Shown piece by piece: positions 4,244-19,788 of a stretch of 64,000 nt of DNA (position 1 is the first letter of the stretch; each line of letters opens with the position of its first letter). The position numbers were made by a program, and so were the translations under genes. Location: the NCBI RefSeq assembly GCF_054482595.1, contig NZ_CM137008.1, one strand, 5' to 3'. The notes beneath the pieces are model-generated. The model was not told the origin of the DNA. It searched no databases and saw only the letters and a list, made by a program, of their open reading frames with translations.

Positions 4244-4278
4244 TTGGAATTACTTGGAATATTTTCTTGGAATATTTT
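4244..4278. promoter_or_regulatory. Three direct copies of TTGGAAT(ATTTTC): candidate integrase arm-type binding sites (P' arm)
   Basis: Copies at 4244, 4254, 4267; same motif at 43079-43089 and inverted at 43141-43150 near attR; overlaps int 3' end. Confidence 0.4.
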
Positions 4279-5275
4279 CAGGTAACGGGACATCAAGTGT
4301 TGGTGAAACTTTAACCTTCCTGTCATAGATTAGCACTTGCCCTTCGGTTTTGTGACCAGAGAAAAGTTGCTTATCCCGGCTGCTTCCTTCATAGTCTGAA
4401 ATTCCTTTCGCCTTCAGATCATGAAAGGTGAAGTCGGTTAAAATACCTGAAATTTTTCCAGCACGATTTCTTGCATCTACCCACATTTCGTTAAAGCCTT
4501 TGTACATATATCGGTTGCCGTATTGATTGCTGATCACATAGGCAGATTTTGGTAACTGTTTTGCTTTTTCGATCGCTGCCTGTAATCGTGGACTCCATGC
4601 TTTTATCTGTTTTTTTCCGGTTTTCCCTTGCTGGATGAATATCCCGTCGTTTCCAATCTGTTCCCATTTCAGCGATAACACATCGGAAACCCTCGCTGCA
4701 CACAGATAGGCAATTTCCATTGCGATAAAAACAGGAAGAGGTGCAACGCTTAATACTGCCTGGTATTCTTTGTCGGTTACATATCGTTCGCGGTTTTTGG
4801 CCTTGAATTTACTTACACCTGCACATGGGTTAGCCTTCACGTACCCTCGCTCATACCCCCAACTGTAAACACGGGACATACTGCTTTTTTCATGGTTGGC
4901 TTGCGTTTTACTCTGCTCCCCTCTTTTGTCCATGTATCGACGGATGTGTTCTGGTTTTATGGAATCCGCTGGTACCTTACCGAATACGGCAAGCAACTTT
5001 TTTTGATGTTGCAGATAATCTTTTTGTGTTCTTGGACTAAGGTCACTGTAATAGGCGCTGGCGAGGAATTTTTCCCACAAGCGACCGAATGTCATTGCAC
5101 GATCGCGATTATTTACAGTTTCCTCATACTTTTTCCATAAAGCAGCTAAACCATCCTTGATGGCGGTTAGTGTGACAGATTCTCTGGATGTTGGTTTCCA
5201 TACATAACTATATTTATTTGGGTATACATTTGGAGGTAATTTTTCGTGTTCAGGATTTTTCCTTCGTCTTCCCAT
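4250..5275 (-). CDS. int: Tyrosine recombinase / phage integrase
   Basis: 341-aa ORF adjacent to attL; C-terminal catalytic region with R...HxLR...Y-type residues (FTFHDLKAKG...LFSGHKTEGQVLIYDRK). Confidence 0.85.
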   Translation of the reverse strand: MGRRRKNPEHEKLPPNVYPNKYSYVWKPTSRESVTLTAIKDGLAALWKKYEETVNNRDRAMTFGRLWEKFLASAYYSDLSPRTQKDYLQHQKKLLAVFGKVPADSIKPEHIRRYMDKRGEQSKTQANHEKSSMSRVYSWGYERGYVKANPCAGVSKFKAKNRERYVTDKEYQAVLSVAPLPVFIAMEIAYLCAARVSDVLSLKWEQIGNDGIFIQQGKTGKKQIKAWSPRLQAAIEKAKQLPKSAYVISNQYGNRYMYKGFNEMWVDARNRAGKISGILTDFTFHDLKAKGISDYEGSSRDKQLFSGHKTEGQVLIYDRKVKVSPTLDVPLPENIPRKYSK

Positions 5276-5536: not shown

Positions 5537-7978
5537 TTAAAAATCAGCCTGACTCGGGATCAGTTTTTGCCAGATAGCTGAAACGTATTTTGCCTGGTAA
5601 CGAGCGTCATCAAGTGCATTATGGCGCTCACCTTCGAATGGAATAGCCGTTCTGGCATCGAAGTCTATGGCTTTCCCCAGCTCAACGATTGTGCGTACAT
5701 CGCGATCGTTGTAGTAACGCCACGGGCAGGGGATCCCCTGCCGTTCGTATGAACGGCGCAAAATCGTGTTGTCGAAGTTGGCTCCATTTCCCCAGACCTG
5801 AACAAAAAATTCACCGGAGTTTTCGTCGATAAATTCCCGCAATTGTAACAGTGCATCATCTAACGGGATTTCATCGGTCATAATGGCAGATTGCGCTTCG
5901 CGTGATTGCTTAAGCCACCATTTAATGGTGTCCCGATCAATGACTCCGCCAGCAGTTTCCAGATCGATAGTCTTACTAAATTCCGGTCCCATATCTCCGG
6001 TTTGCGGATCGAAAAATATTGCACCTATTGAGATGATCGGGGCATCAGGATTTTTTCCCATGGTTTCAAGGTCGATCATTAGATGGTCACACGTCCTGCT
6101 GGTGGATGTGATTTCGTGATGACCGTTCACCTTAATTGAGTGATCTGCCGTCTCGCCAGTTTTATTATCGCTGGCGTGATGCTGATTGCCGCCAGGGTTC
6201 TCCTTGTGTGGATGTTCAGCGCCTTCCATTTCCTCCGGATCATTTTCCTGAACTTCAACCTGATTCTCTTCATCGAATGTTTCCTGGTATGTTGCGTCGC
6301 CCATCACCGCGCCACAATCAGGGCAGTTGACGCCACCGCTCTGACCGCAGGCGGTGCAGACTTTTTCCGGTTCCTGTTGCGCTACTGATTCGGATTGTTT
6401 CGTTTCTGGCTCGTTTTGTAACGCATTTGGGCTGTTTTGTTCCGCTTTTTGGTCGTTCCGTTCCGATTCATGCTGGTTCTGGTTCACAGAATCGCGAGTC
6501 TGGATCCCCTTGACCCATTTCGGATCATTAGGGTCGCTAATCCCCTCAACAAATTCACCACGCGATACAGCAAGTAACTTATCGGCGTCAGGCTGGCTGA
6601 TATTGGCTGCCTGCATAATTTTGTTTACTTCGTCAGCGGTGACTTTTACTTGGTTAGCGGAACTCACCTGCGACTGAGCATCCAGCGACTGCGCGTTCTG
6701 GCCATGTTCAGTTGTATCCGGTTCCATTGTTTCAGTTGTTGCCTGTTCACCTGCCATTGCGTCAGATGGTTGTGGTTTTTCTTCTTCTGTTTCACGCTCA
6801 GTAACCACCTCGCGGTTAATTTCTTCCAGGATATCTTTTTCCGGCGTATGCCGGGCAGCTGTGAGAGTTTCCTTGCTGGGGTTCTCGTGATCAGTTTCCG
6901 TCAAATAGGCGTTGATATACCCCTGAAGGCGTCCCGGGTAGTGATAAAATTCAGGGTGTGCGCTTCGGATAAGTGCAAAAATAGCGGCGCGGGAATAGTC
7001 CAGAATACCCGGGGTTGCACGAAGTGCTGCGGACCATTCTTTGAACGGACTTTCTTTGTTCAGGACTACTTCTTTTGCGCGACGATAAACGCTGCCCGGA
7101 ATTTCATAAATATTAAAATCCATCGGAAGTGTGGCTGCTGCAATCTCCACATCCAGTGTGTCGAGGGTGTGTACTAAATTCGGATTGCGATCGGTTTTGT
7201 TCCCACCGCCAGCATTAGCACCGGAAGCCGTGCGGGTGATGCGTGAAACACGATTTCCTTTCATCCACTCTTTTGTCAGCAGACCCCGATCAGTGTAGTC
7301 AGCGTCCAGGTATGCTTCGAAAAAAGCAGTTATTAGTCCCAGGTCTGAATTACCAGGATTAGGGAAAACTTTGTCAGTGTCACGAACCAGTTTGTGGAGG
7401 TCGCGAATCTCCAGCGAGTCGAGCAGACTGGTTTTATGCGAAATAGCCAGGGCAGTAACAGCCGGTAGTTCTTCAGCCCGTGCAATGTGTAATGCCTGGA
7501 GTTCGTCGCGTGAAACGTGCGTTACTGGTTTTTCGCTGCCGTGTTGAGCAAGCCAACGAATGGGCAGTTCCTGACCGGAGACAGGCAGAAGCATGCTCTC
7601 CTCAATCTCAGTCATGTCTTCGCCGTTGATGTTGGTATTGTCAGTGCTGGCTGGTTTGTCCTGAACAGAGGGGGAAGGGCCGATAAATGTCATTGTGATG
7701 CCATCTTTCCCGCCTTTTTCATAGCGGTTGCAGAATTCAGTATCAAACACGCCTTCTGGCGGAAGGTCGTCAACAACGGGCAAATTGACGCGGACGGGTT
7801 TTTTAAAGTCGTCTTCATCATAATCGTTGTCATCCATTGCGGTAATGCAGCGGGAGATTGCAACAGATAATTTTTTTGCTGTAGTCCAGTAAAAACCACC
7901 TTTAATTCCCAGGCGTTTTCTTACTTTGTCATTTTTTGCTTCGCAATATAGTGCAAATTCTTCTTTATCAGTGCTCAT
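5537..7978 (-). CDS. Large phage early protein with C-terminal DEDDh (DnaQ-like) 3'-5' exonuclease domain
   Basis: 813 aa; C-terminal motifs [21 protein letters not shown]; upstream Cys4 cluster [16 protein letters not shown]; long acidic low-complexity linker. Confidence 0.6.
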
Positions 7979-13461: not shown

Positions 13462-13630
13462 TTTTGGTTCAACTAAATACAACGTCAGTTTTGAAGAATG
13501 GCATGAACTGTTAATGGACTATGCAGAGTTACGTGGTGGAAGTGCTGCTGATGCTGAAGCCTGGCGTGATGACTACGAAGCAGGAAAAACTCCGGTCGAA
13601 GCATATTGTGATGAGTGGGGCGATGAATGA
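13454..13630 (+). CDS. Small acidic protein (58 aa)
   Basis: ORF found by hand, below the 60-aa cutoff of the ORF track; MADFGSTKYNVSFEEWHELLMDYAELRGGSAADAEAWRDDYEAGKTPVEAYCDEWGDE; ATGA overlap with next gene. Confidence 0.35.
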   Translation: MADFGSTKYNVSFEEWHELLMDYAELRGGSAADAEAWRDDYEAGKTPVEAYCDEWGDE

Positions 13631-14142
13631 GCGAGATTAATTATCAGGAAGGGCATGAAACGGCAGGGCAGGCAAAACCAGTTGCATGGCGATATCGCTA
13701 CGTGAAAAAAGGCGTTACGGACTTTCAGGAGAAGATGTGGGTTGGTGACTGGAAATATGTACCGACAAAAGAGGGGTGCAACGACAGGCCGGGCTATGAG
13801 ATTCAGGCCTTATTCACTACCCCGCCAGTCCCTGTGATATCAGAAGGACTGGTTAAAGCCGTGCGCTTTTATGAACAGGTAAAGCGTGAGAATCCACCAG
13901 TCGAAACAGGAGCATGGAAAGATGCTGTTGATTGGGTACTCAAAGAGGCCTGCTGTGCTGTCATTCTGGGTAAAGCCGACAATCCACTAGCATCCAGTAA
14001 TCAGGTTGGCGAATTAACAATGTGGGTTAAACGACTGGTCAGTCAACTGAAAAAAGCTAATCCAGACTGCAAATTACCGGAGATGGCGATGGATTACCTG
14101 AAACGAAATGGACTGATAAGCGTGGAGGATGTTTTACGATGA
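13627..14142 (+). CDS. Hypothetical protein
   Basis: 171 aa; translationally coupled to neighbours. Confidence 0.5.
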   Translation: MSEINYQEGHETAGQAKPVAWRYRYVKKGVTDFQEKMWVGDWKYVPTKEGCNDRPGYEIQALFTTPPVPVISEGLVKAVRFYEQVKRENPPVETGAWKDAVDWVLKEACCAVILGKADNPLASSNQVGELTMWVKRLVSQLKKANPDCKLPEMAMDYLKRNGLISVEDVLR

Positions 14143-14222
14143 CCTGGCCTGAGGCATTTACAACGGCAGGAATCGCAATGGCTGTGGCGCTGGTGGTGTA
14201 TTCGATTTGCCGCTGGGGATAA
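14139..14222 (+). CDS. Possible 27-aa hydrophobic peptide
   Basis: MTWPEAFTTAGIAMAVALVVYSICRWG; ATGA overlap with upstream gene; single predicted TM segment. Confidence 0.25.
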   Translation: MTWPEAFTTAGIAMAVALVVYSICRWG

Positions 14223-14376
14223 AAACGGTTTGCGGGAAAAGGAGAGTTAAGTAGAATTGCAGCGGGTGCTTGAGGCTATCTGTCTCAGGCATGAACACCA
14301 AAAGGCAGATAGAGAAAAGCCCCAGTTAACATTACGCGTCCTGCAAGACGCTTAACATTAATCTGAGGCTCAATCT

Positions 14377-14589
14377 ATGAACGGCAAATCTAGGTTAGCC
14401 TCTTACGTGCCGAAAGGCAAGGAGAAGCAGGCTATGAAGCAGCAAAAGGCGATGTTAATCGCCCTGATCGTCATCTGTTTAACCGTCATTGTGACGGCAC
14501 TGGTAACGAGGAAAGACCTCTGCGAGGTACGAATCCGAACCGGCCAGACGGAGGTCGCTGTCTTCACAGCTTACGAACCTGAGGAGTAA
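14377..14589 (+). CDS. mok: Mok-like leader ORF, in-frame N-terminal extension of hok
   Basis: 70-aa ORF MNGKSRLASYVPKGKEKQA... continuing into the Hok reading frame. Confidence 0.45.
   Translation: MNGKSRLASYVPKGKEKQAMKQQKAMLIALIVICLTVIVTALVTRKDLCEVRIRTGQTEVAVFTAYEPEE
14434..14589 (+). CDS. hok: Hok/Gef-family type I toxin
   Basis: 51 aa MKQQKAMLIALIVICLTVIVTALVTRKDLCEVRIRTGQTEVAVFTAYEPEE; complementary mRNA end elements at 14263-14276 and 14639-14653. Confidence 0.8.
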   Translation: MKQQKAMLIALIVICLTVIVTALVTRKDLCEVRIRTGQTEVAVFTAYEPEE

Positions 14590-14732
14590 GAGACCTGGCG
14601 GGGGAGAAATCCCTCGCCACCTCTGATGTGTCAGGCATCCTCAACGCACCCGCACTTAACCCGCTTCGGCGTTTTTTCCGTTGATTAACTCTAGTTATTA
14701 GAGAACCGAACTTTTATTGATGGGGCAGGGAG

Positions 14733-15125
14733 ATGAAGAAACTTGTTTTAGTCGCAGGTGTAATGATTGCAACAGTAATGTTGGGAGGGTGTGCAGCAAA
14801 GGTCGATCCAGCGTTGAAAGCAGAAGCAATGAAGCCACTAACATGTAATGATGAAAAGCAATGTGACTTTTATTGGAAACGAGCGCAATTCTGGTTGGCT
14901 AATAATTCCTCATGGAAAATTCAAACGGCGACAGACACGCTAATTTCCACTTATAATCCCTCTCCAAATAGTCCATTCCTCGCTTATCAGGTGAGTAAAA
15001 TGCCAAATGAAGATGGATCCTCAAGAATTTTCATCAAGCCTTTTTGCGATAATATGTTTGGCTGTCAACCAAACCCCTATCAGGCAGTTGTTTCCTTTAA
15101 AAACTTCGTTAAAACAGGGCAGTAG
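14733..15125 (+). CDS. Lipoprotein of unknown function
   Basis: 130 aa; signal peptide with lipobox LGGC; four further Cys; followed by terminator-like hairpin. Confidence 0.55.
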   Translation: MKKLVLVAGVMIATVMLGGCAAKVDPALKAEAMKPLTCNDEKQCDFYWKRAQFWLANNSSWKIQTATDTLISTYNPSPNSPFLAYQVSKMPNEDGSSRIFIKPFCDNMFGCQPNPYQAVVSFKNFVKTGQ

Positions 15126-15324
15126 TGTATAGCTTGGACGATAAATTATTAGTGAAAACGCCGTAAACCCTCACCCAATGTGGACTAAGTCTATCAAACA
15201 TGACTGTGATGATTAGTCCGTAGTTGTTGCCTATGAAATCTGGATTGAGTCAGGGTTTAATCCAATAATTATTCTATCGTTCCTTTACAAGTCCGGTATA
15301 TTACTTTCAGTTTGTTTTAGCATA

Positions 15325-15350
15325 CCCGCTTCGGCGGGTTTTGTTTTTTC
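15325..15350 (+). terminator. Rho-independent terminator (CCCGCTTCGGCGGG + T-run)
   Basis: GC stem with UUCG loop followed by ttttgtttttt. Confidence 0.6.
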
Positions 15351-15421
15351 CTGGCATTCTGGTTTACAATTCGCACGCCAGCCTGAACAACTGGCACCTG
15401 CTGCGCCAGCAGAGACAACCG

Positions 15422-15700
15422 ATGGCGCACGATACCAAATTACACAATTCTGATGATTCTGCCGTCTTTGCCAGCAGGCACGGGCGGCGTTCCCGCACTT
15501 TCAAATCTGACTGGTTCCAGCATGACCCATGTACTGAAGAACAGGCCGAATGGCTAATTCATAACTATCGCAGACGCGGATACGAGATTAAGAAAGCCCT
15601 CAGCCTCGATTATCGTCACTGGATAATCTATGTCAGGCTCCCTTATTCCGAACGCCCACCGCGCCCATCCCGCACATACCAGCAACGGATCTGGAGGTAA
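15422..15700 (+). CDS. Hypothetical small protein
   Basis: 92 aa from MAHDTKLHNSDDSAVF...; weak SD; overlaps start of the next ORF. Confidence 0.3.
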   Translation: MAHDTKLHNSDDSAVFASRHGRRSRTFKSDWFQHDPCTEEQAEWLIHNYRRRGYEIKKALSLDYRHWIIYVRLPYSERPPRPSRTYQQRIWR

Positions 15701-16757
15701 CGTGCGGATATTACTTCGACCTGTTCTGGTACCGGAACTCGGGCTGGTGGTCCTTAGGCCGGGCCGTGAATCCATGCAAGTATTTCATAACCCTCGAGTG
15801 CTGGTGGAGCCTGAACCGAAAAGCATGCGCGGTCTGCCGTCCGGAGTCGTCCCTGCCGTTCGCCAGCCGCTGGCGGAGGATAAATCATTACTGCCATTTT
15901 TCAGCGATGAGCGGGTGATTCGTGCTGCTGGCGGCGCTGGGGCACTGTCTGACTGGCTGTTGCGTCATGTCAAATCCTGCCAGTGGCCTCATGGTGACTA
16001 TCATCACAGTGAAATCGTCATACATCGTTACGGTACCGGCGCGATGGTGTTGTGCTGGCACTGCGACAACCAGTTGCGTGACCAGACATCCGAATCACTC
16101 GGGCAACTTGCTCATCAAAACCTGTCAGCATGGATGATTGACGTCATACGCCATGCAATGAATGGCACGCAGGAGCGGGAATTGTCGCTGGCTGAATTAT
16201 CCTGGTGGGCGGTCTGCAATCAGGTGGCGGACGCGCTTCCGGAGGCAGTATTACGTCGTTCTCTGGGGTTACGTGCGGAAAAAATCCGCTCCTTGTACCG
16301 CGAAAGCGACATCGTACCGGGAGAGCAGACCGCCACCAGCATACTGAAGCAGCGCACAAAAAATCTTGCGCCGTTGCCTCATGCCCACCAGCAAAACCCG
16401 CCACAGGAAAAGACGGTGGTCAGCATTGCCGTTGATCCGGAGTCACCGGCTCAGTATCTCCAGCGCCAGAAACCACAACAGGAAGAGATGCCTGTATACA
16501 CGCGTTGGGTAAAAACGCAGAAATGCATGACGTGCGGTAATCAGGCAGATGATCCGCATCACATCATTGGTCATGGACTGGGAGGGATGGGAACAAAGGC
16601 TGATGATTTGTTTGTTATTCCGCTGTGCCGTAAATGTCATAACGAACTGCACGCCGGGGTAAAAGATTTTGAAGAAAAACACGGCAGCCAGCTGTTGTTG
16701 CTGATTCGTTTTTTAATGCACGCGAGAAATTCGGGTGTCCTGAAGTGGAAAGCATGA
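15630..16757 (+). CDS. DUF968-like nin-region protein (YdfU-like)
   Basis: 375-aa ORF; C-terminal Cys/His cluster CMTCGNQADDPHHIIGHG...CRKCHNELH; true start may be GTG 15702 or ATG 15774. Confidence 0.55.
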   Translation: MSGSLIPNAHRAHPAHTSNGSGGNVRILLRPVLVPELGLVVLRPGRESMQVFHNPRVLVEPEPKSMRGLPSGVVPAVRQPLAEDKSLLPFFSDERVIRAAGGAGALSDWLLRHVKSCQWPHGDYHHSEIVIHRYGTGAMVLCWHCDNQLRDQTSESLGQLAHQNLSAWMIDVIRHAMNGTQERELSLAELSWWAVCNQVADALPEAVLRRSLGLRAEKIRSLYRESDIVPGEQTATSILKQRTKNLAPLPHAHQQNPPQEKTVVSIAVDPESPAQYLQRQKPQQEEMPVYTRWVKTQKCMTCGNQADDPHHIIGHGLGGMGTKADDLFVIPLCRKCHNELHAGVKDFEEKHGSQLLLLIRFLMHARNSGVLKWKA

Positions 16758-17123
16758 ATGACTGAACGCATAGAATTTGTTTTGCCTTACCCGCCGACGG
16801 TGAATACCTACTGGCGACGTCATGGCAATACGTATTTCATCTCGGAAGCCGGAAAGCGTTATCGCCGTGATGTGGCGCTAATTGTTCGCCAGCAGCGGCT
16901 GAAATTAAGCCTGTCCGGAAGGCTGGCGATAAAGATTATTGCAGAGCCACCGGATAAGCGCCGCCGCGACCTGGACAATATCCTGAAGGCACCACTGGAT
17001 GCGCTGACGCATGCCGGACTACTTATAGACGACGAGCAGTTTGATGAAATCAATATTGTGCGCGGTCAGCTCGTTCCTGGTGGGCGGCTGGGGATAAAAA
17101 TCACAGAACTGGAGTGCGCATGA
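16758..17123 (+). CDS. rusA: Holliday junction resolvase RusA
   Basis: 121 aa; LPYPPTVNTYWRRHG...RRRDLDNILKAPLDALTHAGLLIDDEQF matches RusA catalytic Asp region. Confidence 0.8.
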   Translation: MTERIEFVLPYPPTVNTYWRRHGNTYFISEAGKRYRRDVALIVRQQRLKLSLSGRLAIKIIAEPPDKRRRDLDNILKAPLDALTHAGLLIDDEQFDEINIVRGQLVPGGRLGIKITELECA

Positions 17124-17809
17124 ATAACCAGTATTTACAGTTTGTGCGTGAGCAGCTCATTATCGCCACCGCTGATTTGAGTGGGGCAACAAAAGGTCAG
17201 CTTGAAGCCTGGCAAGAGAATGCCATGTTCGATACAGGGCGTTACAGGCGAAAAAAAATCCGGTACCGCGATGAAGTGACTGGAAAAATGATAACGCGGG
17301 ATAATCCACCAATCCCGGGAAAGCAATCGCTGGCGAAGGGGACGTCAATTCCTCTGGTCAGTCCGGTTGAGTTTTCGACATCATCGTGGCGGCGGGCTGT
17401 TCTGTCTCTTGAAGAACATCATAAAGCCTGGTTGTTGTGGTGTTACAGCGGGAGTATTTGTTGGGAATATCAGATCGCGATAACACAGTGGGCGTGGAAT
17501 GAATTTAATACTCAATCCGGTACCAGAAAAATTGCAGGGAAAACGCAGGAACGCCTGAAAAAATTAATCTGGCTGGCGGCGCAGGCAGTAAAAGCAGAAC
17601 TTTTTGGTGGGGAAGGTTATGAATACCAGGAGCTGGCATTACTGGCGGGAGTGACAACTAAAAACTGGTCCAAAACATTTACTCGTCACTGGGTTGCAAT
17701 GAAACACATTTTTCACCGACTGGATAGTGAGGCTTTATTGTTTGTAATGAGAACACGTTCAAAACAAAAGACGGCATTTTCAAAGCAAAGTGTTGCAAAA
17801 GTAGATTGA
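17120..17809 (+). CDS. Putative late-gene antiterminator (Q-like)
   Basis: Position between rusA and the tR'-like terminator/lysis genes; ATG overlaps rusA stop; no motif confirmed. Confidence 0.45.
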   Translation: MNNQYLQFVREQLIIATADLSGATKGQLEAWQENAMFDTGRYRRKKIRYRDEVTGKMITRDNPPIPGKQSLAKGTSIPLVSPVEFSTSSWRRAVLSLEEHHKAWLLWCYSGSICWEYQIAITQWAWNEFNTQSGTRKIAGKTQERLKKLIWLAAQAVKAELFGGEGYEYQELALLAGVTTKNWSKTFTRHWVAMKHIFHRLDSEALLFVMRTRSKQKTAFSKQSVAKVD

Positions 17810-17873
17810 AAGGCATATATTTCATGCAAATCTGATATTTTGCCGATTTTGTACGTGATGGCAAAAGCAAACA

Positions 17874-17898
17874 AAACCCGCCCACAAGCGGGTTTTTT
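17874..17898 (+). terminator. Rho-independent terminator downstream of Q-like gene (tR'-like)
   Basis: cccgcccacaagcggg followed by ttttttg. Confidence 0.6.
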
Positions 17899-18018
17899 GT
17901 GCCACTTATCTCGGATAGGCATGGTGAATGCGCTGGTGGAGGAGATAAGGGTGATTTTTAACCAGGTGATTTTTGAATGCTTGCAACATTGATTTCGTAA
18001 CATTATTATCCTGCGCCC

Positions 18019-18094
18019 GGCCCTTTAGCTCAGTGGTGAGAGCGAGCGACTCATAATCGCCAGGTCGCTGGTTCAAATCCAGCAAGGGCCACCA
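18019..18094 (+). tRNA. tRNA with CAU anticodon (Ile2/Met-like)
   Basis: GGCCCTTTAGCTCAGTGGTGAGAGCGAGCGACTCATAATCGCCAGGTCGCTGGTTCAAATCCAGCAAGGGCCACCA. Confidence 0.8.
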
Positions 18095-18095
18095 A

Positions 18096-18172
18096 CCGCC
18101 ACTAGCTCATCAGGAAAGAGCGTCAACCCTTTAAGTTGAGTGTGCGAGGTTCGAGTCCCCGGTGGCGGTCCA
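18096..18172 (+). tRNA. tRNA, anticodon read as UUU (Lys) but loop atypical; identity provisional
   Basis: Acceptor CCGCCAC/GTGGCGG, D and T arms, encoded CCA; anticodon loop CCTTTAA with C at position 33. Confidence 0.55.
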
Positions 18173-18174
18173 GT

Positions 18175-18250
<76 letters not shown>

Positions 18251-18253
18251 TAT

Positions 18254-18328
<75 letters not shown>

Positions 18329-18536
18329 GTTAGAGTCTTTCAGTCTGCGATGATGGGAAATCCCGGAGTGACTGAAAGACGTTTAAGTTATGAATGATCG
18401 CCTTTTTTTGCAAAATTGCTGTGCAGAAATACTAACCTTCGAGCAGGCGATCATTCATAAGCACTCTGCTTTTATTCCGATTAACTGTGGGTGGTTTGTT
18501 GGATAGAGTGCTTTCCTTTCTGTATATATCGTTTCG

Positions 18537-18560
18537 CCCGCTTTTGCGGGTTTTTCTTTT
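18537..18560 (+). terminator. Terminator-like hairpin upstream of holin
   Basis: cccgcttttgcggg followed by tttttctttt. Confidence 0.5.
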
Positions 18561-18620
18561 CAAATCCCTTTCATTTCTCAGTGTAAAACTACGCCATCCG
18601 TTATTTGCGGAGGTGAGGCT

Positions 18621-18836
18621 ATGAAATCCATGGACAAAATTTCAACGGGCATTGCCTACGGCACCTCCGCAGGCAGTGCTGGCTACTGGTTTTTACAGTG
18701 GCTTGATCAGGTCAGTCCTTCACAGTGGGCTGCGATTGGTGTACTGGGGAGTCTGGTTCTGGGCTTCCTGACTTATCTGACAAATCTGTACTTCAAAATC
18801 AGAGAAGACAAGCGTAAGGCTGCACGGGGAGAGTAA
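18621..18836 (+). CDS. Class II holin (phage 21 S-type pinholin) with dual start
   Basis: 71 aa [30 protein letters not shown]...; two start codons (M1, M4). Confidence 0.85.
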
Positions 18837-18840
18837 TTCA

Positions 18841-19191
18841 ATGACTCAAAACTATGAACTGATTGTGAAAGGGATCCGCAATTTTGAGAATAAAGTTACG
18901 GTAACTTTAGCGTTACGGGACAAAAAACGCTTTGACGGCGAAATTTTTGACCTGGACATCTCGCTGGACCGTGTTGAAGGTGCCGCGCTGGAGTTTTATG
19001 AGGCAGCAGCCAGAAGGAGCATCAGACAGGTCTTCCTGGATGTTGCTGCCGGGTTATGTGAAGGGGATGAGCAGTCGCCGGAAAAGCGCCCCGTAATTTT
19101 AGAGGCGCAGAATGTGTGGATAACCTACAAAGGAAAGCTACCAGGAAGAATTACTGGTTCTCTGAAGACTCCTCCGGAATCACAACCTTAA
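18841..19191 (+). CDS. Hypothetical protein inserted between holin and endolysin
   Basis: 116-aa ORF beginning 5 nt after holin stop; no recognisable motif. Confidence 0.45.
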   Translation: MTQNYELIVKGIRNFENKVTVTLALRDKKRFDGEIFDLDISLDRVEGAALEFYEAAARRSIRQVFLDVAAGLCEGDEQSPEKRPVILEAQNVWITYKGKLPGRITGSLKTPPESQP

Positions 19192-19254
19192 GTCACTGAC
19201 CGGAACAGATAAACCTGTCCGTGGGCAGAAACCGATAAATCCTGATAAATATCC

Positions 19255-19788
19255 ATGAACGCAAAAATCAGATACGGCCTGTCGGCTGCCGTTTTGGCAC
19301 TGATTGCCGTCGGTGCGCCCGCGCCTGATATTCTCGACCAGTTTCTGGATGAAAAAGAAGGTAACCACACAACGGCATACCGCGATGGTTCCGGCATCTG
19401 GACCATCTGTCGGGGTGCCACGATGGTGGATGGAAAACCCGTTTTTCCCGGTATGAAACTGTCGAAGGAAAAATGCGACCAGGTCAACGCCATTGAGCGT
19501 GATAAGGCGCTGGCATGGGTGGAGCGCAATATTAAAGTACCACTGACCGAACCACAAAAAGCGGGTATCGCGTCATTTTGTCCCTATAACATTGGCCCCG
19601 GTAAGTGTTTTCCGTCGACGTTTTATAAGCGGCTGAATGCCGGTGATCGTAAGGGCGCATGCGAGGCGATTCGCTGGTGGATAAAAGATGGTGGGCGCGA
19701 TTGCCGCATACGTTCAAATAACTGCTATGGACAGGTTATTCGTCGTGACCAGGAAAGCGCATTAGCCTGTTGGGGGATAGATCAGTGA
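19255..19788 (+). CDS. SAR (signal-anchor-release) endolysin, lysozyme family
   Basis: 177 aa; N-terminal weakly hydrophobic Gly/Ala-rich segment then lysozyme-like domain. Confidence 0.8.

Follow-up and report, generated by a model that had tools for sequence, protein, structure and literature searches.

The window that we analysed, a stretch of 64,000 nucleotides, carries a Rac-like lambdoid prophage, as judged from its sequence and its open reading frames (ORFs). In addition to the integrase, the RecE-like exonuclease and the antiterminator Q (Table 1), this prophage encodes YdaS/YdaT-like proteins and a DUF977 protein. On the + strand, the order is hok/sok, a lipoprotein ORF, the non-coding stretch of 225 nt examined here, a 92-aa ORF, DUF968, rusA and Q. 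The hok/sok type I toxin-antitoxin locus is complete, with both the Hok ORF (annotated hokD, WP_000813254.1, at homologous loci) and the sok/hok regulatory RNA region present. The longest ORF of the DUF968/YdfU gene (15630-16757) overlaps the 92-aa ORF by 71 nt, and in related records DUF968 starts 1-2 nt past the stop codon of the 92-aa ORF, which would be approximately 15702 in the window. Downstream of Q, four tRNA genes stand in tandem (Met-CAT, Lys-TTT, Thr-TGT and Gly-TCC, 18019-18328), of which two related phage records annotate only three (Met, Thr and Gly). Between Q and the tRNA cluster, at 17825-17898, where a late-promoter leader RNA would be expected, Rfam gave weak hits below the threshold (22-24 bits, E 0.1-0.3) to isrJ and isrK, two sRNAs of Salmonella prophages.

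Table 1. Features of the prophage region, in window coordinates
Feature	Position	Strand	Basis or remark
Integrase	4250-5275	-	
RecE-like exonuclease	5537-7978	-	
hok/sok regulatory RNA region, 5' end of hok mRNA	14264-14439	+	Rfam RF01794 sok, 112.4 bits, E 8.8e-26, full-length model match
hokD toxin ORF, 51 aa	14434-14589	+	MKQQKAMLIAL...EPEE, inside ORF 14377-14589
hok mRNA 3' UTR before terminal hairpin	14590-14658	+	contiguous with terminator in empty-site genomes
Crippled left terminator copy	14659-14679	+	ACCCGCTTCGGCG-TTTTTTCC, without GGTTTTG; direct repeats D3 and D19 with 15324-15351
Lipoprotein gene leader	14680-14732	+	Shine-Dalgarno AGGGAG at 14726-14731
Lipoprotein gene, 130 aa, phrog_16082	14733-15125	+	ORF with lipobox LGGC; PHROG E 2.6e-84
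Segment A, non-coding, ~105 nt	15126-15229	+	after lipoprotein gene in all variants
Long imperfect palindrome, segment A and rmrA remnant	15136-15283		inverted repeats I2 and I5; local p ~0.015
Hairpin GGACTAA/TTAGTCC	15182-15188 / 15213-15219	+	sequence; 24-nt loop
Predicted decayed rmrA 3' end, last ~30 codons	15230-15320	+	blastn, tblastn, global alignment
Predicted intrinsic terminator, native hokD 3' terminator	15324-15349	+	terminator scan, fold, empty-site genomes
ORF, 92 aa	15422-15700	+	
Antiterminator Q	17114-17809		

The lipoprotein ORF stops with TAG at 15123-15125, confirming the gene end at 15125 given in the original prediction, and its product had no match in Pfam or NCBIfam. 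The cassette that carries it has a GC content of 38-41% (14800-15300), against 50-60% in the flanks. On the + strand, no ORF of at least 25 aa lies wholly inside 15126-15340, and the - strand holds only two short ones, at 15109-15201 (30 aa) and 15317-15430 (37 aa); the ORF list is thus in agreement with the earlier statement that no credible ORF separates the lipoprotein stop codon from the terminator. A small-protein reading was rejected for both - strand ORFs: the 30-aa ORF has no start codon in the natural variant V2 described below, where this codon falls inside the deleted segment, and the 37-aa ORF spans the terminator. A promoter scan limited to strong sigma-70 consensus matches, which weak or alternative promoters would escape, found no sigma-70-like promoter in the leader of the lipoprotein gene (14680-14732), and none inside or just upstream of the non-coding stretch.

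More distant homologs of the lipoprotein (40-85% identity; loci L058, L059 and L063-L071 from IMG/VR) are immediately followed by a second, variable lipoprotein gene (at ~1840-2350 in these loci), with stop and start codons that often overlap. In the E. coli cassette, the second gene of such a pair is missing. The lipoprotein homolog of L060 and L061 stands before a tail gene and has its own TTCG-loop terminator. In the IMG/VR contig L008 (1-331), other sequence resembling the end of an insertion sequence abuts the lipoprotein ATG and replaces the usual leader and hok.

Two copies of the hokD terminator

A strong terminator had been noted after the lipoprotein gene, at 15325-15350. We found it at 15324-15349, where a stem-loop (ACCCGC-TTCG-GCGGGT, 15324-15339) with a stem of six base pairs, five of them G-C, and a TTCG tetraloop is directly followed on its 3' side by the T-rich tract TTTGTTTTTT (15340-15349). 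The hairpin has a folding energy of -13.1 kcal/mol (z -3.56), equalled by none of 200 shuffles, and the predicted intrinsic terminator is therefore well above chance. Its first part recurs ahead of the lipoprotein gene, in the form of a 19-nt direct repeat (14659-14677 with 15324-15342), and GTTTTTTCC is also repeated. The left copy is missing seven nucleotides (GGTTTTG), and with them the terminator fold is gone (-4.5 kcal/mol, z 0.10). The lipoprotein cassette sits between this crippled copy and the intact right copy.

Sequences 14560-14658 and 15324-15440 were joined in silico, and the resulting empty-site query was searched in complete E. coli genomes. The join was found in one piece, with 100% identity, in many E. 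coli genomes (locus L007 is an example), and it was covered over at least 80% in 2494 of 5426; matches to the site as such occur in 4586 E. coli genomes. In the empty-site genomes the terminator directly abuts the hok 3' UTR, at 100% identity, indicating that the hokD transcript of the prophage has its resident 3' end in this hairpin, and that the 665 bp of the repeat unit (14659-15323) have been inserted. By this comparison of sequences, the lipoprotein cassette is placed inside the hokD 3' terminator of a Rac-like lambdoid prophage; the hokD terminator is predicted to be older than the cassette, and would now also end the lipoprotein transcript. The same crippled left junction was present in 53 of the 54 cassette loci, which points to one ancestral event. 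The notion that the hairpin is a universal part of hok loci was rejected, since plasmid hokD loci diverge ahead of it, so that the hairpin is specific to the prophage hokD lineage.

Control by fold-back of the 3' end is known for hok mRNAs. With GGTTTTG lost, the 3' end of the hok mRNA may here be ~670 nt longer than in the empty-site form, and this could affect the fold-back control.

Origin of the sequence behind the lipoprotein gene

A blastn search of the stretch against E. coli genomes returned two groups of matches. About 254 records hold the stretch itself, and 229 further records match only 15232-15349, with 73% identity (E 6e-8). These 229 matches correspond to the 3' end and terminator of a gene for a 367-aa HTH and Peptidase_M78 protein (Pfam HTH_3 and Peptidase_M78 in locus L003), which is the second gene of a two-gene cassette directly behind hokD. 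PADLOC identified the intact pair in L003 as RmrT (E 4.6e-25) and RmrA (E 6e-105), i.e., as RosmerTA. This toxin-antitoxin system acts in anti-phage defence, with RmrT as the toxin and RmrA, an HTH and ImmA/IrrE (M78) peptidase protein, as the antitoxin (Millman et al., 2022, bioRxiv 10.1101/2022.05.11.491447; Ernits et al., 2023, PMC10440598). The RosmerTA cassette fills the same slot behind hokD in ~4% of E. coli genomes. In the E. coli chromosomes L003 and L004 it lies at 860-2594, which is the slot of 14680-15323 in the window, with a TTGACA-type promoter region and with two intact copies of the hok hairpin flanking it. RefSeq labels these genes only "hypothetical" and "HTH / ImmA-IrrE".

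At the protein level, tblastn aligned the sequence from the window with RmrA residues 338-367, with 16 of 30 residues identical. In a global alignment of 15230-15320, without the terminator, with the last 97 nt of rmrA, the score (z 8.8) was not matched by any of 5000 shuffles. Read in frame, the window gives MKSGLSQGLIQ*LF..YRSFTSP..FQFV where RmrA has MKTGLSQDLIRELFSINRPITNP..FQIV, the full alignment being MKSGLSQGLIQ*LF--YRSFTSPVYYFQFV with MKTGLSQDLIRELFSINRPITNPRNIFQIV. It thus holds an in-frame TAA codon (15266-15268) and a deletion of 6 nt (two codons). Homologs from other genera, with identities down to ~45%, share the conserved C-terminus of RmrA, indicating that the coding sequence is ancestral and that the window holds the remnant. 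Over the first 14 codons, the differences to rmrA fall 2/2/7 on the first, second and third codon positions; this third-position bias suggests that part of the divergence arose as a functional coding allele, before the decay. Judged by its sequence, 15230-15320 is a dead remnant of a diverged allele of rmrA, the antitoxin gene of RosmerTA.

The homology to rmrA could not be extended 5' of 15230, where anchored global alignments were matched by 148-931 of 1000 shuffles. We found no intact rmrA allele closer than ~73% to the remnant; the alleles at 83-90% amino-acid identity (L073-L075) resemble it less than the common E. coli allele does, and an exact 22-mer from the remnant occurred only on contigs with the cassette. 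The window has no intact rmrA, no HTH or peptidase domain, and no rmrT, as no ORF besides the lipoprotein gene fills 14680-15323. A functional RosmerTA system is, on these searches, absent from the window. The comparison with RosmerTA can be put as follows: the remnant is homologous to the 3' end of rmrA and shares the slot and the hairpin terminator with ~229 E. coli records, whereas in the window ~30 codons are left, decayed and bearing a stop codon as well as an indel, and rmrT is absent. Both this gene remnant, which makes up half of the stretch, and the older age of the terminator had escaped the original prediction.

The question of which gene owns the terminator has two sides. The hairpin is the resident one of hokD, yet it also follows rmrA in other contexts. 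The form ACCCGCTTCGGCGGG with a T-run stands behind rmrA, without hok, in L074 (2604-2650) and L075 (2604-2650), suggesting that the terminator seems to travel with the cassette. In L074 the RosmerTA cassette comes after an Ea22-like gene, and in L075 it is located just upstream of a phage minor-tail gene; no hairpin copy was seen on the 5' side of the cassette in either locus.

The other half of the stretch, segment A, starts directly after the lipoprotein stop codon and was seen nowhere but behind this lipoprotein allele. An invariant 20-mer from it had no match in 100,044 species genomes. In IMG/VR, all of its 51 matches were on contigs retrieved with the lipoprotein query, and in metagenomes 18 out of 18 lay directly behind the end of the lipoprotein gene. 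No relative of segment A was detectable in plasmids or phages, the plasmids giving two marginal matches of 35-39 nt, and it has no homology to rmrA. Two candidate origins were rejected. One is descent from the second lipoprotein gene of the distant homologs, for which tblastn and blastn searches with these genes against the stretch gave nothing beyond noise. The other is that segment A copies rmrA, or its remnant, in inverted orientation; the sole trace of this was the 16-nt inverted repeat I2, with a local p of ~0.015 and an E-value of 3 in the 64-kb window. The source of segment A was not traced among the collections searched, and its distribution in them is that of a sequence which always travels with the lipoprotein gene. 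A 34-nt direct repeat with 71% identity (15086-15119 and 15222-15255; core AGTTGTT[T/G]CCT) has one copy at the end of the lipoprotein gene and the other across the boundary between segment A and the rmrA remnant. It may be due to chance, or it may be a trace of how the joint was formed.

Three natural forms of the tail were found among loci drawn from phage records, E. coli genomes, IMG/VR and metagenomes. The full-length form of the window (V1) accounts for 56 loci. V2, with 16 loci, lacks 15172-15232, between CCT repeats, and 15236-15242, while V3, with two loci, lacks the 104 bp between TTAG at 15213-15216 and TTAG at 15317-15320. With rmrA as the outgroup, the full-length form is ancestral at 15236-15242. 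The lipoprotein ORF is intact in both V2 and V3 in spite of the deletions, suggesting that the tail is dispensable. In the V3 form, the stem of the right-hand terminator is mutated too (ACCAGCCTCAGCGAG in L005, which is E. coli AR_0085, at ~2590-2625, and ACCCGCTTCAGCGAG in L057), and V3 prophages may therefore lack effective termination between hok and the genes close to Q.

Predicted hairpins and candidate RNAs

The stretch was originally proposed to be a long 3' UTR or an independent small RNA, and an inverted repeat (ggactaa...ttagtcc, around 15180-15220) was pointed out in it. The repeat does exist, with arms of 7 bp. Its local fold has a z of ~-2.1, and a perfect inverted repeat of at least 7 bp with a loop of at most 40 nt occurs in 33% of dinucleotide-preserving shuffles. 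This hairpin is at chance level. It is wholly gone in V2, and in V3 its 3' arm is gone. It is nested in a longer imperfect hairpin (15136-15283), which the first reading of the sequence had missed. In the full-length form (15130-15290), the fold has a z of -1.3 on the + strand and of -3.55 on the - strand (-40.9 kcal/mol, more stable than all 200 shuffles); over the entire 225 nt, the values are -0.99 and -3.2, respectively. The V2 form reverses this strand asymmetry, with a z of -2.1 on the + strand and of +0.1 to +0.6 on the - strand. The covariation test had 18 distinct sequences, which were too similar to one another: 43 of the 53 predicted pairs were invariant in them and one showed a double change, and the covariation measures were equalled by 89-359 of 500 shuffles. 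V1 and V2 both preserve the outer stems (15136-15150 with 15264-15283); one A-to-G change in them leaves a G-U pair on the + strand, and one pair is compensatory. The internal hairpins read as by-products of junction formation that would since have been eroded by deletions.

Of the two original alternatives, the 3' UTR is consistent with the anatomy of the locus. The next usable terminator is that at 15324-15349, and transcripts which cover the lipoprotein gene should therefore carry a 200-nt tail. The independent small RNA did not hold up, as there is no Rfam family, promoter or covariation to support it, and its hairpin is at chance level and deleted in variants. In an Rfam scan in E-value mode over 13500-19500, the best match within the stretch was noise: rsmX scored 18.4 bits (E 4.3), where the gathering score is 56. 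Covariation gave no support either, across 18 distinct sequences that were too similar to one another. The original prediction had itself named the lack of a conserved structure as an argument against it; no conserved structure was found for its hairpin, missing or halved as it is in V2 and V3.

If the tail had a function within the mRNA, the long hairpin at 15136-15283 could stabilise the transcript against 3' exonucleases or modulate its translation or decay, and the outer stems would then have a modest or weak structural role in the UTR. This would fit the retention of these stems in V1 and V2, with the changes described above, and the + strand fold of V2. We consider it very improbable, because the V1 fold on the + strand is no better than shuffles, V3 is without the whole 3' arm, shuffles readily equal the covariation measures, and the terminator hairpin already protects the 3' end. 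A function in trans, for an sRNA derived from the 3' UTR, is very improbable. The tail would have to be cut, for example by RNase E at the AU-rich sequence 15290-15322 or at the base of the long hairpin, and the released RNA, which would include the terminator with the U-tail, could then associate with Hfq and act in trans. Many enterobacterial sRNAs arise in this manner, among them CpxQ, SroC and DapZ, which are Hfq-dependent. Like their precursors, the stretch is a long 3' UTR closed by a strong terminator; the U-rich tail of this terminator is long, AU/U-rich sequence precedes the terminator, and V1 and V2 keep the outer stem on the + strand. The stretch differs from them in having no conserved seed or structure, no match to an Rfam family and no covariation. 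Moreover, the terminator and U-tail are those of hok, unchanged where the stretch is absent, the body of the candidate differs by deletions of 68 bp and 104 bp among otherwise near-identical cassettes, and half of this body is a decaying gene remnant.

The - strand fold could also be taken as a sign of a structured antisense RNA that would cover 15136-15283, facing both the tail and the lipoprotein gene's 3' end. However, several sequence windows and both strands were tested, and one z of -3.5 is therefore weak evidence for such an RNA. There is no promoter-like site on the - strand near 15290-15450, the sole - strand match being at 15636-15609, inside a gene; no - strand terminator follows, and the - strand fold of V2 does not surpass its shuffles. 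An antisense RNA is thus exceedingly improbable. Least probable of all is a mobile or repeated element (MITE, ERIC or a REP-like palindromic unit) inserted behind the lipoprotein gene: an imperfect palindrome of ~150 bp is indeed present, and two phage records with RAST-style annotation call overlapping - strand ORFs "mobile element protein", but these ORFs have 37-52 codons and span the terminator, the sequence occurs once per genome (median 1, maximum 2 places) and always in this prophage slot, its right arm is homologous to rmrA coding sequence, and the invariant 20-mer was not met in the species genomes.

Cassette turnover behind hokD

The stretch is very probably the untranslated tail of a lipoprotein moron, composed of segment A, the rmrA remnant and the resident hokD terminator. 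As such, it looks like recombination debris with a borrowed terminator, and not like an sRNA gene. Since the left hairpin copy is crippled and the cassette has no detectable promoter of its own, transcription that in a lysogen starts at the hok promoter, or with early transcripts further upstream, probably continues past the crippled left hairpin and across the lipoprotein gene. The lipoprotein would be translated from its good Shine-Dalgarno sequence, and transcription would stop at 15349, giving an mRNA with a 200-nt 3' UTR. It is from the arrangement of the sequence that we infer that transcription runs on from hok, that it ends at 15349, and that the transcript is not processed. In a lysogen, the terminator would shield the DUF968-rusA-Q genes from transcripts of hok and of the upstream region, while in lytic growth early transcription would have to pass it to reach Q.

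Morons are reportedly a concept of Juhala/Hendrix. They have been defined as extra DNA of deviant composition with a promoter and a terminator of its own (Cumby, Davidson and Maxwell, 2012, PMC3594210). The lipoprotein cassette conforms to this in being extra DNA with respect to sibling prophages, with an exact empty site and a deviant GC content, and in carrying a single accessory gene and ending at a terminator within an otherwise co-transcribed phage operon. It differs in that no promoter of its own was detectable, and in that the terminator would not have been brought by the cassette, being the resident one of hokD, duplicated and half-destroyed on the left side. In the T4-type phages, PeSL cassettes are variable accessory genes bracketed by copies of a short stem-loop (2010, PMC2839356). 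The accessory genes described here are likewise bracketed by copies of one short terminator stem-loop; in contrast to PeSL, the repeat consists solely of a terminator hairpin without a promoter linked to it, the host is a lambdoid prophage, and recombination between the copies is putative. The nin region of lambda has the intrinsic terminators tR2-tR4 upstream of Q, which early lytic transcription likewise has to pass, and a strong predicted Rho-independent terminator between the early genes and Q is found here as well, the likeness being one of position.

The one site behind hokD thus alternates between three states, empty, RosmerTA and lipoprotein, and copies of the hairpin flank the insert in both of the filled states. 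By analogy, it is tempting to speculate that the terminal hairpin of hokD (ACCCGC-TTCG-GCGGG and T-run) may serve as a recombination "landing pad" for accessory and defence cassettes of lambdoid prophages, a reading that we regard as doubtful. Consistent with it, the rmrA stump would record one replacement, and the crippled left copy would let the hok promoter drive the cargo. Against it, the RosmerTA cassette occurs in two other contexts with the hairpin on its 3' side only. Weaker still is a variant of this idea, in which the long hairpin of the tail would have gained a regulatory role in the hok-lipoprotein transcript.

As an RNA candidate, the stretch is of little importance, and without transcript evidence it is not worth pursuing as an sRNA. 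The reading as a composite tail of the lipoprotein moron gives it a modest value of another kind, that of a dated record of how cassettes replaced one another in an accessory slot of a prophage. The lipoprotein gene would have displaced a RosmerTA defence system, leaving ~90 nt of the antitoxin gene behind, and the resident hok terminator would have been duplicated and its upstream copy disabled, so that the new gene probably came under read-through from the hok promoter. The case also shows that "unexplained" non-coding stretches at the joints of phage mosaics can be explained via a comparison of the alternative occupants of the same slot.
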